32,457 bases of DNA from a virus: the IMG/VR virus record IMGVR_UViG_3300045988_169227, positions 1-32,457 of that record; one strand, given 5' to 3'. A program made the translations under genes and the position numbers. This document shows positions 6,371 through 15,757 of this stretch, in pieces (the stretch's first letter is position 1; the number at the start of each line of letters is the position of its first letter). The notes under the pieces were generated by a model. That model was not told where the DNA came from. It was given only the letters and a program-made list of their open reading frames with translations, and made no database searches.

Positions 6371-6808
6371 TTAGTTTTTCAAAAAGGCTATCTCTTTCGG
6401 ATATTCTTCAAGTATTCGCCTTTTCATTTTCTCCGTCGGGTTCTGAATACGGCTTAAATCGCTGTTATGTTCCAAGTCTGCAATCTTCACCACCCTTGCT
6501 ATCGGGTTATCCTTACACCGCTCTATATACTTCCAACGCGCCGCGCCGTTTGATTCGGCGGGTTTACGCCGCGTTACCGCGTCTACCGCTTCAACGATAT
6601 AATCGGGGAAACCTTCCTTTCTTAAATCGTCGAGCGTCATCGGCGTATCTTCTATTACGTCGTGGAGTAAGGCTACGACCTTTTCGTCGTTCGTATTGCA
6701 TTTTAACGCTACCGTTATCGGGTGGAAAACGTAATCGAGACCGTCTTTACCCACAACGCCTTTATGCGCCTTTATCGCTACTTCTAACGCTTTTCTGATT
6801 AAATCCAT
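6371..6808 (-). CDS. stand-alone RelA/SpoT-type HD hydrolase (small alarmone hydrolase, SAH)
   Basis: Carries HKGVVGKDGLDYVFHP, ALLHDVIEDT and KIADLEHN, which match the (p)ppGpp-hydrolase HD_4 signature. It is only 145 aa and has no synthetase domain. An AAGGAG SD lies 6 nt upstream. Confidence 0.8.
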   Translation of the reverse strand: MDLIRKALEVAIKAHKGVVGKDGLDYVFHPITVALKCNTNDEKVVALLHDVIEDTPMTLDDLRKEGFPDYIVEAVDAVTRRKPAESNGAARWKYIERCKDNPIARVVKIADLEHNSDLSRIQNPTEKMKRRILEEYPKEIAFLKN

Positions 6809-7177: not shown

Positions 7178-7206
7178 ATTATATGCTTATGTATACGAAT
7201 TGTCAA
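7178..7206 (-). promoter_or_regulatory. perfect-consensus sigma-70/A promoter, TTGACA-17-TATAAT
   Basis: The minus strand reads TTGACAattcgtatacataagcaTATAAT, with -35 at 7201-7206 and -10 at 7178-7183. It sits in the 100-nt gap upstream of the 109-aa gene. Confidence 0.7.
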
Positions 7207-7254: not shown

Positions 7255-7476
7255 TCAGTCCGTCGTTAAGTGCATTACGGCGTATTCGGGAAACTTCTTG
7301 AAACAATCAAGGTCATTTTCGTACGCGGAATATATCCCGCCATACTCTAATACGAAATCGATTTGATTTTCAGGGCAGCCCGCTTTTAGTAAGTTTTCTC
7401 TCGCGACCGCCGCAACTTCGTCATAGGGCTTACCGTAGTGTTCTTCAACAAATCTCTTATCTTCATCGGTTATCAT
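7255..7476 (-). CDS. hypothetical small acidic protein (73 aa)
   Basis: ATGA overlap with the stop of the upstream kinase gene. A GGGAGGT SD is present. The protein is D/E-rich. Confidence 0.6.
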   Translation of the reverse strand: MITDEDKRFVEEHYGKPYDEVAAVARENLLKAGCPENQIDFVLEYGGIYSAYENDLDCFKKFPEYAVMHLTTD

Positions 7477-8366
7477 TCAAAACTTACCTCCCTGTAATTT
7501 TCTTTTTTAAGTTGCTCGTAAACCTCTTTGGGCTTATCTCCGTAGTCTGCGATTCTTCCTAACGGGATATAACGCCCCGTATCTATCGCTCTTGCTACCG
7601 CCCTGTTCATACTCTCTTCGTTAGATACTTCAACGTGGTGTATATGAACGTCATAGCCCGCGTCCTGTAAATCTTTTACCCACTTTTCAATATCGACCAT
7701 TTTACTGCCGATTATCGGTATCGCAAGGTTAGCACCGTTAAACTCTCCCCCTGCCTTAAAAGCGTTAAGGGCGTTTTTCTGAATGGCTTTACTGTCGGAA
7801 TGAACGTAAGCCGCGCCGTATTCGTCATAACCGGGTAAAAGTTTCTTTATCTCGTCGTTATCAAACTCAAAAGCACCGTACTTCTTTTTTAACGAATTGA
7901 CTACCGCCGAAGATTTACCCGCGGCGGGTAAACCCATTACCAAGTCGGCACGAAAGCCTTTCGGCGTGTTGTTGGCGTCCTTTAAGAAAGTGTCGGTATA
8001 ATGGACTTTATCTTCATCACTCATCGGCGGACGCTGTTTAGCCATTTCCATTGCTAATTGCGCTTTTGCTTCAAAGTCTTTTATAACGGGGTTTTCGAGT
8101 AATTCCTCGTAAGTGTACCTTTTGCCGCTTTTAATCTCGTCATACAACTTTCTTGCCGCTCCGCCCTTTATGGCGAGTTCGTGTTCTGACTTCTTTATTG
8201 TATTTATTTTTTCGGAGTTTTGCAACTTTTTATATGTTTCGTTTTGCCTAAACTCGCTCTTATCTCCAAAAACGCGTTTAGTCGCTTCTGCGGGGCTTTC
8301 GCCCTCTTCCGCGTGAACGTGTCTACCGTTTTCGGTGGTAAACCAATAACCTTTTTCCGTTGCCAT
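7473..8366 (-). CDS. zeta-toxin-like P-loop kinase with an N-terminal extension (297 aa)
   Basis: Walker A MGLPAAGKSS, then FDNDEIKKLLPGY and GYDVHIHHVEVSNEESMNRAVARA, which parallel zeta/PezT family motifs. The N-terminus carries a GYWFTTENGRHVHAEEG motif. Confidence 0.65.
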   Translation of the reverse strand: MATEKGYWFTTENGRHVHAEEGESPAEATKRVFGDKSEFRQNETYKKLQNSEKINTIKKSEHELAIKGGAARKLYDEIKSGKRYTYEELLENPVIKDFEAKAQLAMEMAKQRPPMSDEDKVHYTDTFLKDANNTPKGFRADLVMGLPAAGKSSAVVNSLKKKYGAFEFDNDEIKKLLPGYDEYGAAYVHSDSKAIQKNALNAFKAGGEFNGANLAIPIIGSKMVDIEKWVKDLQDAGYDVHIHHVEVSNEESMNRAVARAIDTGRYIPLGRIADYGDKPKEVYEQLKKENYREVSFE

Positions 8367-9724
8367 TATTGCGTCTCCTTACTTTTTGCGAGGCGTTCCA
8401 TAATCTGTCGTGCGGCATAACGTCCGTTATTATTTAACTGTCTTTGCCACGCATTTTGAGACGGAGACCAACGGAAACCGTGAGATTTTAACATATCTCT
8501 TGTCTCTACGTCGGGCTTGCCGGGGAAACGAAGTTGTACTCTCATTTGCTCCGCGTTCTCTTCTACGTCTACGCCGTCAACTTTCGGGTATCTTGCCGCG
8601 GTTGCTGCTTTTGCCGCTTCCGGGTTTGCTTTTGCTTCCTGTGCCGCCGCCTGTGCTTTATTTAACTCGTCTATCCTACCTTGAATACGTCTTAACTCTG
8701 CATTGCCGTTTGCAAGCGAAAAAGACGGGTACGGCTGACGAGAAAAGTAATCGCCCGAATTATAAGCGGTATCAAATTTTTTAGCCGCTTCATCGCTTAC
8801 GCCCGGAAAGCCGACAAGCGTTTTGTTTTTCCTAAAATATGCGTTCATCGCCTTGCCGTTTTCCAACTCGGCTTTCAAATTGTCGTACTTCATTTGCAAC
8901 TTACCGATCGCGTTACTGTCGTTTGATTTAACGCTCGCGTTGCTTAATATCCCTTTTATCTTATCAAGATATACGTTATTATCGGGATCAAGCCTGTTTG
9001 AGTTTGCCTCATAAAGAGAACGCAAACGGCTGTTTTTTGCGTCGCTTTTTCGGGTTTTATAGTTTGCAGGCCCGGCAATTACCCACGACGGATAACTCGC
9101 TTCTACCCTGTTATACTCGTTCGTAAAGTTTGCGAGATTTTCAGAATACTTCTCGGCTATCCTTTGTACTCTATCCCAATCTTCTTCAGTAAGAGATGTG
9201 TTGTTTTTATATCTGCTCATCAACTCGTTTACGTTTTTTTCAAACTTCCCAATATCAGAGTTATAACTTGCCGTAGCACTTCCCTTTTGATAATCAGAAA
9301 AAGAATAGGCTTTTTTTGCCCTTTCCGCATAATCTTCGCTCACGCCGTGATTTTTAACGATAAACTTTCTTTCGTCCGACGGCGCGGCTGTTTCTTGTCT
9401 ATCTTCCTGTTTAACAGAAACTTCTTTTTCTCTTTCAGGCACGAGACTTTCTTTCGGCTTTTCGCTCGTCGTCATAACCGCTTTAAGGTCTTTGCCGTTT
9501 TCTAACGCAGAATAAACCTTATCGGGAGTAAGCCCCGTATGTTCTTTTAATGCACTCCAAGCGTCGCGGGGAGTTGCCCCGCTCGGCAAACTTATTCCGT
9601 ATTTTGCACATAACCCGAACGGTAAACCTAAATTACCGCCTTTCCCGCTCTTACTTTCCGCTTGTTCCCCGGTATCTTCACTCCCCGTTTTATACGGTTC
9701 TAACGAATTTTGCCTGTATTCCAT
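8366..9724 (-). CDS. multi-module hypothetical protein (452 aa), polyvalent-protein-like
   Basis: Good SD (AAAGGAG). Modules in order: an LPFGLCAKYGISLPSGATPRDAW motif, a long helical centre, and a C-terminal RFPGKPDVETRDMLKSHGFRWSPSQNAWQRQL mini-domain. That mini-domain is reminiscent of DUF3560-type plasmid and phage proteins. TAATG overlap with the next gene. Confidence 0.6.
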   Translation of the reverse strand: MEYRQNSLEPYKTGSEDTGEQAESKSGKGGNLGLPFGLCAKYGISLPSGATPRDAWSALKEHTGLTPDKVYSALENGKDLKAVMTTSEKPKESLVPEREKEVSVKQEDRQETAAPSDERKFIVKNHGVSEDYAERAKKAYSFSDYQKGSATASYNSDIGKFEKNVNELMSRYKNNTSLTEEDWDRVQRIAEKYSENLANFTNEYNRVEASYPSWVIAGPANYKTRKSDAKNSRLRSLYEANSNRLDPDNNVYLDKIKGILSNASVKSNDSNAIGKLQMKYDNLKAELENGKAMNAYFRKNKTLVGFPGVSDEAAKKFDTAYNSGDYFSRQPYPSFSLANGNAELRRIQGRIDELNKAQAAAQEAKANPEAAKAATAARYPKVDGVDVEENAEQMRVQLRFPGKPDVETRDMLKSHGFRWSPSQNAWQRQLNNNGRYAARQIMERLAKSKETQ

Positions 9725-9763
9725 AGATTACTCCTTTCGATTATAGTTGTGCAGTTTTTCTCA

Positions 9764-9803
9764 CAACAAAACCCCCGCTGTGTAGCCGACGGGGGTTTTG
9801 TTG
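9764..9803 (-). terminator. 14-bp perfect hairpin, a likely terminator of the early/middle transcription unit
   Basis: caacaaaacccccg / cgggggttttgttg arms around a 12-nt loop. The U-rich 3' arm is UUUUGUUG. It lies between the membrane-protein gene and the 452-aa gene. Confidence 0.6.
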
Positions 9804-9861
9804 CGAAATGATAAAGGGGTGAAAAAGGTTTGAACTATCAAGATAACCTATCCACGCTATT

Positions 9862-9890
9862 ACTATAACACATATAACCCCGCAAATCAA
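9862..9890 (-). promoter_or_regulatory. candidate promoter TTGATT-17-TATAGT upstream of the 9764-9803 hairpin
   Basis: The minus strand reads TTGATTtgcggggttatatgtgtTATAGT. Function is uncertain because a terminator-like hairpin follows it. Confidence 0.35.
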
Positions 9891-10311: not shown

Positions 10312-11349
10312 TTAGTATTTTATGAAGCCGTCGCCATAGATTTTATTCAACTCGTCTATAACGTGCTTCATCCCTAAACCGTCTTTGGTCGGCTTCCAAA
10401 AGCCGTCCGTATCATACGCCCCGCCGCCCATACAATACTCGTATTGACGCGGATGAATTTTTTTGAGTAATAAAAACCTTTCGTCGCCTTTACAATGCGC
10501 GGAATACATACAGAAGATACAACCTGTCCGTTTCGCGCCTGTCGTGCATAACTTGCCGCAATCGCAAAGCGTTGTGCCGTATTGATACCCGCCGTCGTCT
10601 TTCACTACGACTTCACCATACACTTTTGAAATCGGTAGATTGTTTTGCTTTATGTATTGCAGAACGTCTTGCTCCGTCCAAAAACTCATAGGGTTACTTA
10701 TCGGCGATTTCATATCGAAACCATTACATCCATTGCGAAGCCATTGCTGCTCGCGCAGTTGGCTTTCTTCCGCCATTTGTGCCGTCATAGGCATTTTGCC
10801 CGTGATTTTGCTGTATTCGTGGGCGGGTTTCTTTTTCATAACGTTACAACACATGTGCGAAATCTTAAAGTCCGTAAAAAGTAACGGCGCGTACTTCGTT
10901 TTATTGTATTTGCTTTCGTTGCCGTTCTTGTCCTTTGCTGTGCCGAATAGTTTTTGTAATCGATACCCGTATCGATTACCCGTCAACGCCATTCGCCCTT
11001 GATATACGCACTCGCTGACTTCTTTACCTATTACGGGATAGCCGTAAGTCTTTATAACTTCGTCAAAGCGCATTGCGGGGCGTAAAATTTCAACATTGTC
11101 GAAACTTTTAACGAATTGTTGATTTTCGGGATATTCAAGCCCGGTGTTGATAAAAACGGCTTTTATCGTTGGATATAGTTTCCTCGCCATATCCAACAGA
11201 ACCGTACTATCCTTACCGCCCGAAAACGAAACGTAAACGCCGTCTACGCCGTAGTATTGCACCCATTCGCGTATACGCTGTTGAGTGCGCATAATCTTTA
11301 ATTCAAGCGGTAAAGACTGTAATTGAGTTAGTTCATTTCTCGTCGGCAT
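10312..11349 (-). CDS. PAPS-reductase-like PP-loop ATP pyrophosphatase (DndC/IbrA-like), 345 aa
   Basis: SFSGGKDSTVLLDM PP-loop motif and a Cys-rich C-terminal part (CDCGKLCTTGAKRTGCIFC). The ATG at 11349 has an AAGGAGAG SD; the track start at 11379 is a TTG. Confidence 0.75.
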   Translation of the reverse strand: MPTRNELTQLQSLPLELKIMRTQQRIREWVQYYGVDGVYVSFSGGKDSTVLLDMARKLYPTIKAVFINTGLEYPENQQFVKSFDNVEILRPAMRFDEVIKTYGYPVIGKEVSECVYQGRMALTGNRYGYRLQKLFGTAKDKNGNESKYNKTKYAPLLFTDFKISHMCCNVMKKKPAHEYSKITGKMPMTAQMAEESQLREQQWLRNGCNGFDMKSPISNPMSFWTEQDVLQYIKQNNLPISKVYGEVVVKDDGGYQYGTTLCDCGKLCTTGAKRTGCIFCMYSAHCKGDERFLLLKKIHPRQYEYCMGGGAYDTDGFWKPTKDGLGMKHVIDELNKIYGDGFIKY

Positions 11350-11409
11350 TTTTACTCTCCTTAAAATCTTCGTCAACAACCAAAAGCCCGTCCGAAAATA
11401 TCTTAAAAA

Positions 11410-12038: not shown

Positions 12039-12470
12039 TTACTCCTTAATTAGTGATTTTAGTTTTTCGGTTTTCGGGTCAAGTGTATTATCGCAAATAA
12101 TATTATTCGCAAGGATTCCGCTTGCAAGCAATATCGTCAATTCGTTTGCGTTTGGGAACTGCTTTATAAATTGTTCTAACAATCGCACTCGCGTTTCGTG
12201 GCAATTATCCGCTTGAATATCTACTCCGACAATACTTGATAAAGCCTTTAAGCCGTCTTTTTCATTTTCACAACGTGAGTATTTGCGAGCGAGTATTTCG
12301 ACCAAAAAGTTACCGTTCCCGCAAGCGGGTTCAAAAAAAGTGCTTTCGATATTATCCCATATTTCGACAGGAATAAGGTCGCACATATCTTTAACAATAA
12401 ATTCGGGTGTATATACTTCCGCAAAATCTTTAACTCTTTGCTTGCTCTTTATGATTTTCGACTTGCCCAT
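12039..12470 (-). CDS. N6-adenine DNA-methyltransferase-like N-terminal half (143 aa) without a catalytic (D/N)PP(Y/F) motif
   Basis: AEVYTPEFIV (motif X-like), FEPACGNGNFL (AdoMet motif I) and IVGVDIQ are present. No NPPY/DPPY follows in this ORF or in downstream ORFs. There is no SD within 15 nt of the ATG, so it may be a gene remnant. Confidence 0.5.
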   Translation of the reverse strand: MGKSKIIKSKQRVKDFAEVYTPEFIVKDMCDLIPVEIWDNIESTFFEPACGNGNFLVEILARKYSRCENEKDGLKALSSIVGVDIQADNCHETRVRLLEQFIKQFPNANELTILLASGILANNIICDNTLDPKTEKLKSLIKE

Positions 12471-15129: not shown

Positions 15130-15330
15130 TTATTTTTTTGCTTTTCTTTCGCTGTACGCCTGTTTTAACCGTTCGCAAGGCTCTCCGCTACATTTTGGCT
15201 CGGAGCAGTTACAGCACAGTTCGATTTCGCACTCGTACTTTATGTTCAGGTTTGGCTTGCTGTGCAACTTTGTCGAATAAGGTCTAACGCCTATAATCGG
15301 TTCAGTTCTGATTAGTCTTTGTCTTATCAT
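15130..15330 (-). CDS. small Cys-rich protein (66 aa)
   Basis: ATG at 15330 follows a GGGGGAG SD. It contains a YECEIELCCNCSEPKCSGEPC cluster. It overlaps the sigma-like gene's end by 29 nt. Confidence 0.45.
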   Translation of the reverse strand: MIRQRLIRTEPIIGVRPYSTKLHSKPNLNIKYECEIELCCNCSEPKCSGEPCERLKQAYSERKAKK

Positions 15331-15757
15331 CTTCTCCCCCTTGCGCCGCGCTGATTTTTGTAAGCGCTTCGGCATAAAGCGAAGCCACCTTTCGTTCGCT
15401 ATAATTAACTTTTTCGGGAACTTCTTTCCACGGAGTGCCTATCAAATGCCGATGAATAATGACGAGTTGCTCGTCTTCGGTTAAGAGTTTCAACCCGTCG
15501 GCGATTTCGTTTCCGATTTCGAAAAACTCCGTAAGCGTTTCGTCTCTCAATGATTCGAACTTTTCTATTTGATTCAGAACACGCTCTTCTATCGATATTT
15601 TTACTCCGCCGTCCGCCCGGACGGCTTCGTAATCAATTGCGGTCATTCCGCCCGATTTTTTCGTTTCATTGATAAGTTCAACAAGTGATTTGTATATCTT
15701 TGCGAGTTTGTTGTACTTTTCATAACGCTGTTTTATCGCTATCTCGTTCTGTGTCAT
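15302..15757 (-). CDS. sigma-70 region-4-like / DUF1492-like transcriptional regulator, a candidate late activator
   Basis: The C-terminal LTEDEQLVIIHRHLIGTPWKEVPEKVNYSERKVASLYAEALTKI resembles the sigma r4 HTH of ArpU/RinA/DUF1492-type phage regulators. Confidence 0.55.
   Translation of the reverse strand: MTQNEIAIKQRYEKYNKLAKIYKSLVELINETKKSGGMTAIDYEAVRADGGVKISIEERVLNQIEKFESLRDETLTEFFEIGNEIADGLKLLTEDEQLVIIHRHLIGTPWKEVPEKVNYSERKVASLYAEALTKISAAQGGEDDKTKTNQN

Follow-up and report, generated by a model that had tools for sequence, protein, structure and literature searches.

A zeta-family kinase and a small acidic partner form a mobile two-gene cassette in a genome of tailed-phage appearance

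Kinases of the zeta family are known as the toxins of toxin–antitoxin systems; one is a type III effector, and others are domains predicted in the polyvalent proteins of phages. To our knowledge, no zeta-family kinase of a phage has been characterised. A gene for such a kinase (297 aa) and its two neighbours (452 and 73 aa) were analysed here in a virus sequence of 32,457 nucleotides (IMG/VR record IMGVR_UViG_3300045988_169227, positions 1 to 32,457; hereafter the window). The window is a ~32 kb genome of tailed-phage appearance in which nearly all genes lie on the minus strand.

The closest described systems differ in substrate and in setting. In zeta, D67 is the catalytic base and UDP-N-acetylglucosamine (UDP-GlcNAc) is bound by E100, T118, R120, T121 and T128 (PMC3062530). 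The family is not confined to this substrate, since AvrRxo1 phosphorylates NAD (PMC5491322, PMC5087710); avrRxo1 pseudogenes retain an intact arc1 (PMC4938570). Zeta-like kinases were described within polyvalent proteins and as fusions to MuF by Iyer et al. (2017; PMC5512222), who also noted solo versions of polyvalent domains, and a small putative immunity open reading frame (ORF) was reported after 89% of MuF toxins by Jamet et al. (2017; PMC5576092). A literature search for phage zeta kinases in a polyvalent or virion context returned nothing relevant. The account favoured here, with a confidence somewhat above even, is that the window encodes a solo effector kinase of the polyvalent type together with its cognate inhibitor in a phage of gut Clostridia, and that its layout is nearest to that of AvrRxo1:Arc1.

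The three ORFs were located on the minus strand at 9724..8366 (452 aa), 8366..7473 (297 aa) and 7476..7255 (73 aa). In an earlier note, made from the letters alone, they had been described as a three-gene operon linked by start/stop overlaps, and these overlaps, like the motifs quoted there, are all present in the sequence: the 452/297 junction reads ...CAATAATGGCA (TAATG, 1 nt overlap) and the 297/73 junction ...TTTGAATGATAACC (ATGA, 4 nt overlap). A Shine–Dalgarno-like site is found at each of the three genes (GAAAGGAG, AAGGAG and GGGAGG). A blastn search of the 2.5 kb region against annotated phages gave no match.

The 297-aa protein belongs to the zeta-toxin kinase family, as the earlier note had proposed from its motifs; Pfam, the family profile and the fold agree on this point. 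PF06414 (Zeta_toxin) was matched over residues 139–287 with E = 2.3e-12 (47.2 bits against a cut-off of 22.3 bits), and all 46 homologs carry the same annotation except one fragment. The relatives come from gut and rumen Clostridia assemblies (Oscillospiraceae, Ruminococcus, Lachnospiraceae and Christensenellaceae). The catalytic domain (residues 139–297; 7476..7952, minus strand) contains the P-loop (G145–S152), D169/D171 and R259/R265, and the motifs GLPAAGKSS (residues 145–153), FDNDEIKKLLPGY (168–180) and GYDVHIHHVEVSNEES (237–252) were located in it. The enzyme is probably active, since K151, S152, D169, D171, R259 and R265 are invariant in an alignment of 29 homologs. When the family profile was aligned to zeta, GLPAAGKS fell on GQPGSGKT and FDNDEIK on IDNDTFK, which places K151 on K46 and D171 on D67; R259 and R265 lie outside this alignment and would correspond to the zeta lid arginines R158 and R171. 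An AlphaFold2 model built on the 29 homologs had a mean predicted local distance difference test (pLDDT) value of 86, and its top PDB matches in Foldseek were zeta (1gvn_B and 3q8x), AvrRxo1 (4z8q) and PezT (2p5t), with E ~1e-6 and a target-normalised template-modelling score of ~0.54; polynucleotide kinases and nucleoside monophosphate (NMP) kinases followed as the next-best folds. Single-sequence searches of the PDB gave no significant match for the kinase or for the 452-aa protein, zeta being reached in PDB sequence searches by the family profile alone, and PADLOC and NCBIfam gave no match for any of the three proteins.

The substrate of the kinase is probably not UDP-GlcNAc, because the phosphoryl-transfer machinery is kept and the UDP-GlcNAc-binding residues of zeta are lost. 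Among the zeta contacts with this ligand, the catalytic Asp alone is kept in the kinase-family alignment. The zeta stretch E116-G-T118-G-R120-T121 (EGTGRT) aligns to P217-I-I-G220-S-K of the kinase, in which P-I-I-G is invariant and the following residues are variable, and E100 and T128 align to positions that are not conserved. By these residues the kinase falls outside the zeta/PezT functional subgroup of UDP-GlcNAc kinases, and the target that the earlier note had given for zeta toxins is not to be assumed here.

The kinase and the 73-aa protein form a mobile two-gene cassette that occurs both with and without the 452-aa gene: in three phage arrangements, as a stand-alone pair in a chromosome and as a truncated kinase beside an intact partner. 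The 73-aa protein (7255..7476, minus strand) would be the cognate inhibitor of the kinase, be it an immunity protein, an antitoxin or a chaperone. It is acidic (pI 4.45; 16 Asp plus Glu against 7 Lys plus Arg), ends in ...YLTTD and had no match in Pfam, PHROG, NCBIfam or PADLOC, and none below E 0.1 in a PDB sequence-profile search. Its homologs, termed family A, are 73–76 aa long, share the YLTTD ending and follow the kinase with the same 4 nt overlap in the related phages L005, L006, L007 and L039. In a 441 kb bacterial contig (L001) the kinase and the small gene stand alone between P-II genes and the pyrimidine (pyr) operon, with no phage genes near the pair. In the bacterial contigs L035–L038, which have housekeeping flanks, the kinase is reduced to its last 51–66 residues and the adjacent 75-aa gene is intact. 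Kinases at 30–35% identity (L008–L010, L040 and L053) are followed by acidic proteins of 80–90 aa that make up a second family, B; homology between families A and B was considered and rejected (hhalign probability 0.1). All of the small partners have pI values of 4.0–4.9. No small ORF follows the kinase domains that lie inside polyvalent ORFs of 547–3530 aa, and no kinase–partner (Rosetta-stone) fusion was found among all loci collected. Since the pair persists in unrelated surroundings and different kinase clades have different partner families, it has the hallmarks of a toxin accompanied by its own inhibitor protein, and the small protein would bind and inhibit the kinase. The coupled 73-aa acidic protein singled out in the earlier note thus behaves as a cognate partner across independent contexts.

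Several details of the collected loci were recorded alongside. The islet in L035–L038 (~8530–9750 in L035) consists of an 86-aa ORF, the C-terminal kinase remnant, the 75-aa partner and an HD hydrolase, flanked by genes for valyl-tRNA synthetase, RNase J ... M18 peptidase and 1-deoxy-d-xylulose-5-phosphate synthase; it looks like a phage fragment that has retained the putative immunity gene. In L008 a 99-aa ORF (7401–7700) just past the family-B partner is weakly similar to family A (E 0.008); it could be an additional partner gene in decay, or the similarity could be due to chance. The solo kinases of L046, L048 and L049 (371–384 aa, on contigs of Clostridia metagenome-assembled genomes) have a C-terminal extension of ~130 residues without similarity to partner family A or B, which might be a cis-acting regulatory domain.

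Ahead of its catalytic part the kinase carries a leader (residues 1–50; 8217..8366, minus strand) made up of a β-hairpin containing GYWFTTENGRHVH (residues 6–18), a helix and EFRQN. In the model the strands span residues 6–10 and 16–20 and the helix residues 25–33; no Pfam or LPD model covers the first ~40 residues. In the alignment of kinase homologs the catalytic part is conserved and the first 40–100 residues are taken from a small set of exchangeable short modules, namely the GYWFTTENGxHVH hairpin, ESKHPRDxDGKF, GAGGxPQEY, EYRQN and GLPFGLCxKYGI...TPRDAW. This last module stands at the N-terminus of the 452-aa protein. Two kinase homologs (P0017 and P0009) bear it in place of the hairpin, which is natural evidence that the leaders are interchangeable; in these two it looks as if a deletion had fused the leader of the upstream gene to the kinase. 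The first residues of the 452-aa protein are MEYRQN, and in the kinase EFRQN follows the hairpin.

The distribution of the kinase leader across effectors is modular. When residues 1–50 were searched against 1.84 billion representative proteins (E ≤ 1e-3), 45 cluster representatives were obtained; the match is N-terminal in most of them, in proteins of up to 456 aa, and internal in two giants (1442 and 2156 aa), and in a third giant (P0183) the best match is N-terminal. The domains attached to the leader belong to the polyvalent-protein repertoire and include PBECR3 (P0192), PBECR1 (P0186), LPD3 (P0196) and MuF_C (P0203), and the cargo of P0202 is a papain-fold glutamine-deamidase toxin (Gln_amidase). 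The giant of 2156 aa (P0208) combines Zeta_toxin (370–528), ART-PolyVal, the anti-CBASS protein Acb1, a copy of the leader at ~1599 and Phage_Mu_F. The cargo of P0182 had been read by eye as a RelA/SpoT-type synthetase, and this assignment was dropped as it was not confirmed by Pfam. A hidden Markov model of the leader run over all loci collected recovered the same kinases only. Relatives of the kinase domain itself also keep this company. They sit inside the giant polyvalent ORFs mentioned above, as the earlier note had said of zeta-like domains in general; together with the domain mix of P0208 and the leader shared with PBECR1/3, LPD3 and MuF_C solo proteins, this assigns the kinase domain to the polyvalent repertoire. 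A larger phage (L002) carries three effector genes between its portal, MuF and capsid genes: a NUDIX–Zeta fusion with a 72-aa ORF after it, an ADP-ribosyltransferase of 1169 aa with a related hairpin motif, NGWVTIKGTHVLI, and another Zeta kinase, which has an 86-aa ORF behind it.

From these data we infer inhibition by the 73-aa protein, packaging into and delivery by the virion, and the nature of the substrate. The region would comprise two separable things that are co-transcribed, the kinase/73-aa cassette and the 452-aa gene. The ATGA overlap would couple translation of the 73-aa protein to that of the kinase, and the small protein would bind and silence the kinase in the producing cell as an immunity protein or antitoxin, possibly serving as a chaperone too, like Arc1 for AvrRxo1. 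The kinase would be the solo version of an effector domain that is carried elsewhere in giant MuF-anchored polyvalent proteins. Its leader would route it, and separately the 452-aa protein, whose own N-terminal leader would have been drawn from the same set of interchangeable modules, into the virion or an ejection pathway. Delivered without its inhibitor into a newly infected Clostridia cell, the kinase would phosphorylate a small nucleotide-type metabolite early in infection, to the benefit of take-over or counter-defence. The earlier note had offered a split polyvalent module and a kinase/inhibitor pair as alternatives; evidence was found for each, they are compatible rather than exclusive, and the evidence favours both together.

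Several points weigh against this account. The kinase genes of the window lie upstream of the terminase genes and not inside the head module. The sequence of the 73-aa protein does not resemble that of epsilon, PezA or Arc1, and the solo kinases L046, L048 and L049 have no small downstream ORF. The role of the leader is deduced solely from the company that it keeps. The kinase–zeta alignment behind the substrate argument scores low (16 bits); it is held in register by the P-loop, DxD, NLxI and GY anchors, and the predicted secondary structure agrees. Finally, L001 and L035–L038 suit a plain chromosomal toxin–antitoxin reading equally well.

The last point leads to the alternative that survives best, which is unlikely though far from negligible. 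The pair would then be an ordinary type II toxin–antitoxin moron acting in addiction, abortive infection or superinfection exclusion: the kinase would stay in the producing cell and be freed upon decay of a labile 73-aa antitoxin, nothing would be packaged and the leader would be a family-specific extension. A stand-alone chromosomal pair, a truncated toxin beside an intact small gene, the tight gene overlap and a partner that is small and acidic are all expected on this alternative, and the zeta, PezT and AvrRxo1 families are established toxins of toxin–antitoxin systems (PMC3062530, PMC4938570). It accounts less well for a leader that also heads unrelated effector domains of the sort found in polyvalent proteins delivered by virions, and that is present again within one such protein, or for kinase relatives in head modules beside MuF. 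The 73-aa protein, moreover, has neither a DNA-binding domain of the kind by which most type II antitoxins autoregulate nor a match to a known antitoxin, and a role in prophage addiction is not evident, as no integrase match was found among the larger window ORFs scanned.

Little probability is assigned to a non-toxic metabolic or repair kinase, of nucleotide or polynucleotide type, that would serve phage DNA or RNA metabolism beside a small ORF that is unrelated or a regulatory accessory. The next-best folds, which include the Clostridium thermocellum and T4 polynucleotide kinases and the NMP kinases, point in this direction, as do weak matches to AAA_33 and to the PHROG class 'polynucleotide kinase' and the missing conservation of the UDP-GlcNAc-binding residues. 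The best sequence and fold matches are, however, consistently zeta, AvrRxo1 and PezT, and the DxD catalytic motif and the lid arginines are as in zeta. An obligate small acidic partner that changes with the kinase clade and truncated-kinase remnants are typical of toxic proteins, and the kinase domain is found in company with ART, Acb1 and toxin-type domains.

In the effector-and-inhibitor account preferred here, the 452-aa protein is seen as a neighbour to the kinase pair rather than as an obligate partner. It matched phrog_19458 with E 1.8e-61; the PHROG label 'primase' for this family was rejected, as it finds no support in Pfam, fold or context. More than 1433 homologs were counted. Most homologs are proteins of 300–320 aa that consist of the core alone, without the N-terminal leader. 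The AlphaFold2 model (pLDDT 82) shows a helical N-terminal module (~31–85), a disordered linker, a helical core (130–378) and a C-terminal α/β mini-domain (385–451). The leader (residues 1–85; 9470..9724, minus strand) joins the EYRQN motif to the GLPFGLCxKYGI...TPRDAW helical module and is modelled with pLDDT 76–89 over residues 31–80. The mini-domain (residues ~380–452; 8369..8587, minus strand) contains GFRWSPSQNAWQRQL (416–430) and has its modelled strands within 385–429; the residues G416, F417, W419, S420, P421, W426, Q427, R428 and L430 (GFRWSP...WQR.L) are invariant in the family, and matches of 64–70 residues to it occur in other phage proteins, including one annotated LPD29. The likeness to DUF3560 that the earlier note had seen in this mini-domain is real but remote. 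PF12083 (DUF3560) is matched by 16 of 40 homologs, the best of them with E 4e-6, and the first-ranked fold for the model in BFVD is that of a protein annotated DUF3560 (E 7e-21), but the window protein itself has no match to PF12083 even at E ≤ 1. Searched against the PDB, the model gave no fold match (best E 0.45), and the titles and abstracts of the listed papers that mention DUF3560 give no role for it.

That the three genes form one unit, as had been supposed, did not hold. Viral contigs with a 452-like core numbered 270; co-occurrence was counted in the best 80 loci of these, and three of the 80 also encode the kinase, on the same contigs as L005–L007. The genes of L007 run kinase, 73 aa, 63 aa, 111 aa, HD, 452-like, TerS, TerL, so that three other genes separate the kinase pair from the 452-like gene, 1.3 kb downstream, and L001, L008–L010, L040 and L053 have the pair without a 452-like gene. 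Because the core is widespread, is accompanied by the kinase in so few loci and stands in a different order in L007, the 'three-gene operon' is a local juxtaposition of a common phage gene and a mobile two-gene cassette. A true three-protein system, in which the 452-aa protein would be a DUF3560-like carrier or scaffold (tethering the kinase to DNA or the portal, for example) and the 73-aa protein the regulator, would explain why overlaps couple the three genes in the window, L005 and L006, why the leaders of both large proteins are drawn from the same interchangeable set and why P0017 and P0009 bear the module of the 452-aa protein, but these counts, the gene order of L007 and the pairs that lack a 452-like gene make it very improbable.

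A bolder proposal, put forward tentatively and with the chances on the other side, extends the effector-and-inhibitor account. The hairpin/helix leader (GYWFTTENGxHVH...) and the modules ESKHPRDxDGKF, GAGGxPQEY, EYRQN and GLPFGLC...TPRDAW might together be an unrecognised set of virion-targeting or ejection signals that load the solo effectors of Clostridia phages (kinases, RNases, deamidases and, here, a DUF3560-like protein) and punctuate giant polyvalent proteins. The operon of the window would then hold two cargos and the immunity protein of the kinase, and the substrate of the kinase in early counter-defence would be some nucleotide cofactor or signalling molecule, distinct from UDP-GlcNAc. 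With its new partner family, diverged substrate pocket and short portable leader, the cassette (~300 plus 73 aa) is a small and tractable model in which the packaging and injection of a polyvalent-type effector, a virion-loading signal and the substrate of a phage-delivered zeta kinase become testable. Should the leader be a loading signal, it would be usable for loading cargo into phage capsids; should it not be, a clear mobile kinase/inhibitor pair in gut Clostridia phages would still be left.

The region is bounded on both sides by sequence signals. Upstream of the three ORFs, in transcription order, are a gene for a protein resembling phosphoadenosine phosphosulfate (PAPS) reductase (11379..10312, minus strand), which is the first of the region, a 94-aa gene and, between the latter and the 452-aa gene, a strong terminator-like RNA hairpin (9759..9808, minus strand). 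The hairpin has a ΔG of −34.6 kcal/mol (z −8.3; none of 200 shuffles was as stable) and a GC core, CCCCCG...CGGGGG, followed by UUUUGUUGUG. It is the upstream boundary of the three-ORF unit and may act either as the terminator of the upstream operon or as a point of attenuation or antitermination for the genes running into the packaging module. A weak promoter-like site lies upstream of it at 9890–9862. The downstream boundary is a σ70 promoter, TTGACA-17-TATAAT (7178..7206, minus strand; 12 of 12 consensus matches), placed directly after the 73-aa gene, which starts the next transcription unit (111 aa, HD, TerS, TerL). The string TAATCGAAAGGAG is common to the leaders of the 452-aa and 111-aa genes (ribosome-binding-site regions ~9745–9727 and ~7175–7155). 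The genes downstream run in the order 111-aa gene, 145-aa RelA/SpoT-type HD hydrolase, TerS, TerL, portal and MuF-like minor head protein, the last of which (353 aa, PF06152) is without a toxin domain.

The 145-aa protein (6371–6808, minus strand) consists of an HD domain alone, matches the hydrolase end of RelA/SpoT (TIGR00691, E 6e-14) and, judged by this match, looks like a small alarmone hydrolase. An HD gene of this kind also lies near the kinase cassette in L007, L009/L010 and L035–L039, with the chromosomal remnants at 94% identity. As (p)ppGpp was reported to rise upon zeta toxin expression (PMC6356619), a functional link between the hydrolase and the cassette is possible. The PAPS-reductase-like protein (10312–11379, minus strand) matched the defence models BrxP (E 8e-14) and SspD (4e-7) weakly, and a fragmentary N6-methyltransferase-like ORF lies nearby (12039–12470, minus strand); the two together suggest a phage DNA-modification module. 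A 151-aa σ70-family protein resembling extracytoplasmic function σ factors (15302–15757, minus strand; TIGR02937, E 7e-7) could be the late-gene σ factor of the phage and is possibly relevant to the timing of the kinase operon.

Compared with described systems, the 452-aa protein shares a C-terminal GFRW...W.R mini-domain with DUF3560 (PF12083) proteins of phages and plasmids and differs from them in its additional N-terminal leader and linker. The kinase locus has zeta-like kinase domains, a common leader and a small ORF after the toxin gene in common with polyvalent proteins and MuF toxins, but its effector is a separate protein of ~300 aa that is fused neither to MuF nor to other domains.

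With epsilon/zeta and PezAT, which are UDP-GlcNAc 3′-kinase systems, the window kinase shares PF06414, the P-loop Lys, the DxD catalytic Asp and the lid arginines; its fold is nearest to 1gvn, 3q8x and 2p5t, and its partner is likewise a small acidic protein. Here, however, the partner is unrelated to epsilon and PezA, the UDP-GlcNAc contacts are lost, with EGTGRT replaced by PIIGSK, and the kinase bears an extra N-terminal leader and a helical extension and stands in a phage context. The kinase also precedes its partner, an order that the earlier note rightly gave as the reverse of classical epsilon–zeta but that has a precedent in AvrRxo1:Arc1 (PMC4938570). Since both an upstream epsilon-type antitoxin and the UDP-GlcNAc-binding residues are missing, the pair falls outside the epsilon/zeta and PezAT systems.

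The architecture of the pair is nearest to that of AvrRxo1:Arc1, a zeta-family NAD kinase effector of Xanthomonas with a downstream antitoxin/chaperone. The differences lie in delivery, which for AvrRxo1 is by a type III secretion system and not by a phage, in the 73-aa protein, which does not detectably resemble Arc1 and is without the KExFD...YExxYY motif of that protein, and in a kinase sequence identity of just ~15–17%. Both kinases nevertheless have the zeta fold, AvrRxo1 being among the top Foldseek matches of the window kinase, and in both the kinase gene comes first and the small partner immediately after it (the Arc1 partners are helical and have 81–98 aa). The effector AvrRxo1 is delivered and has an N-terminal region for delivery, and the window kinase has an N-terminal leader that would serve in delivery. 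In L035–L038 the partner is intact beside a decayed kinase, as arc1 is beside avrRxo1 pseudogenes.

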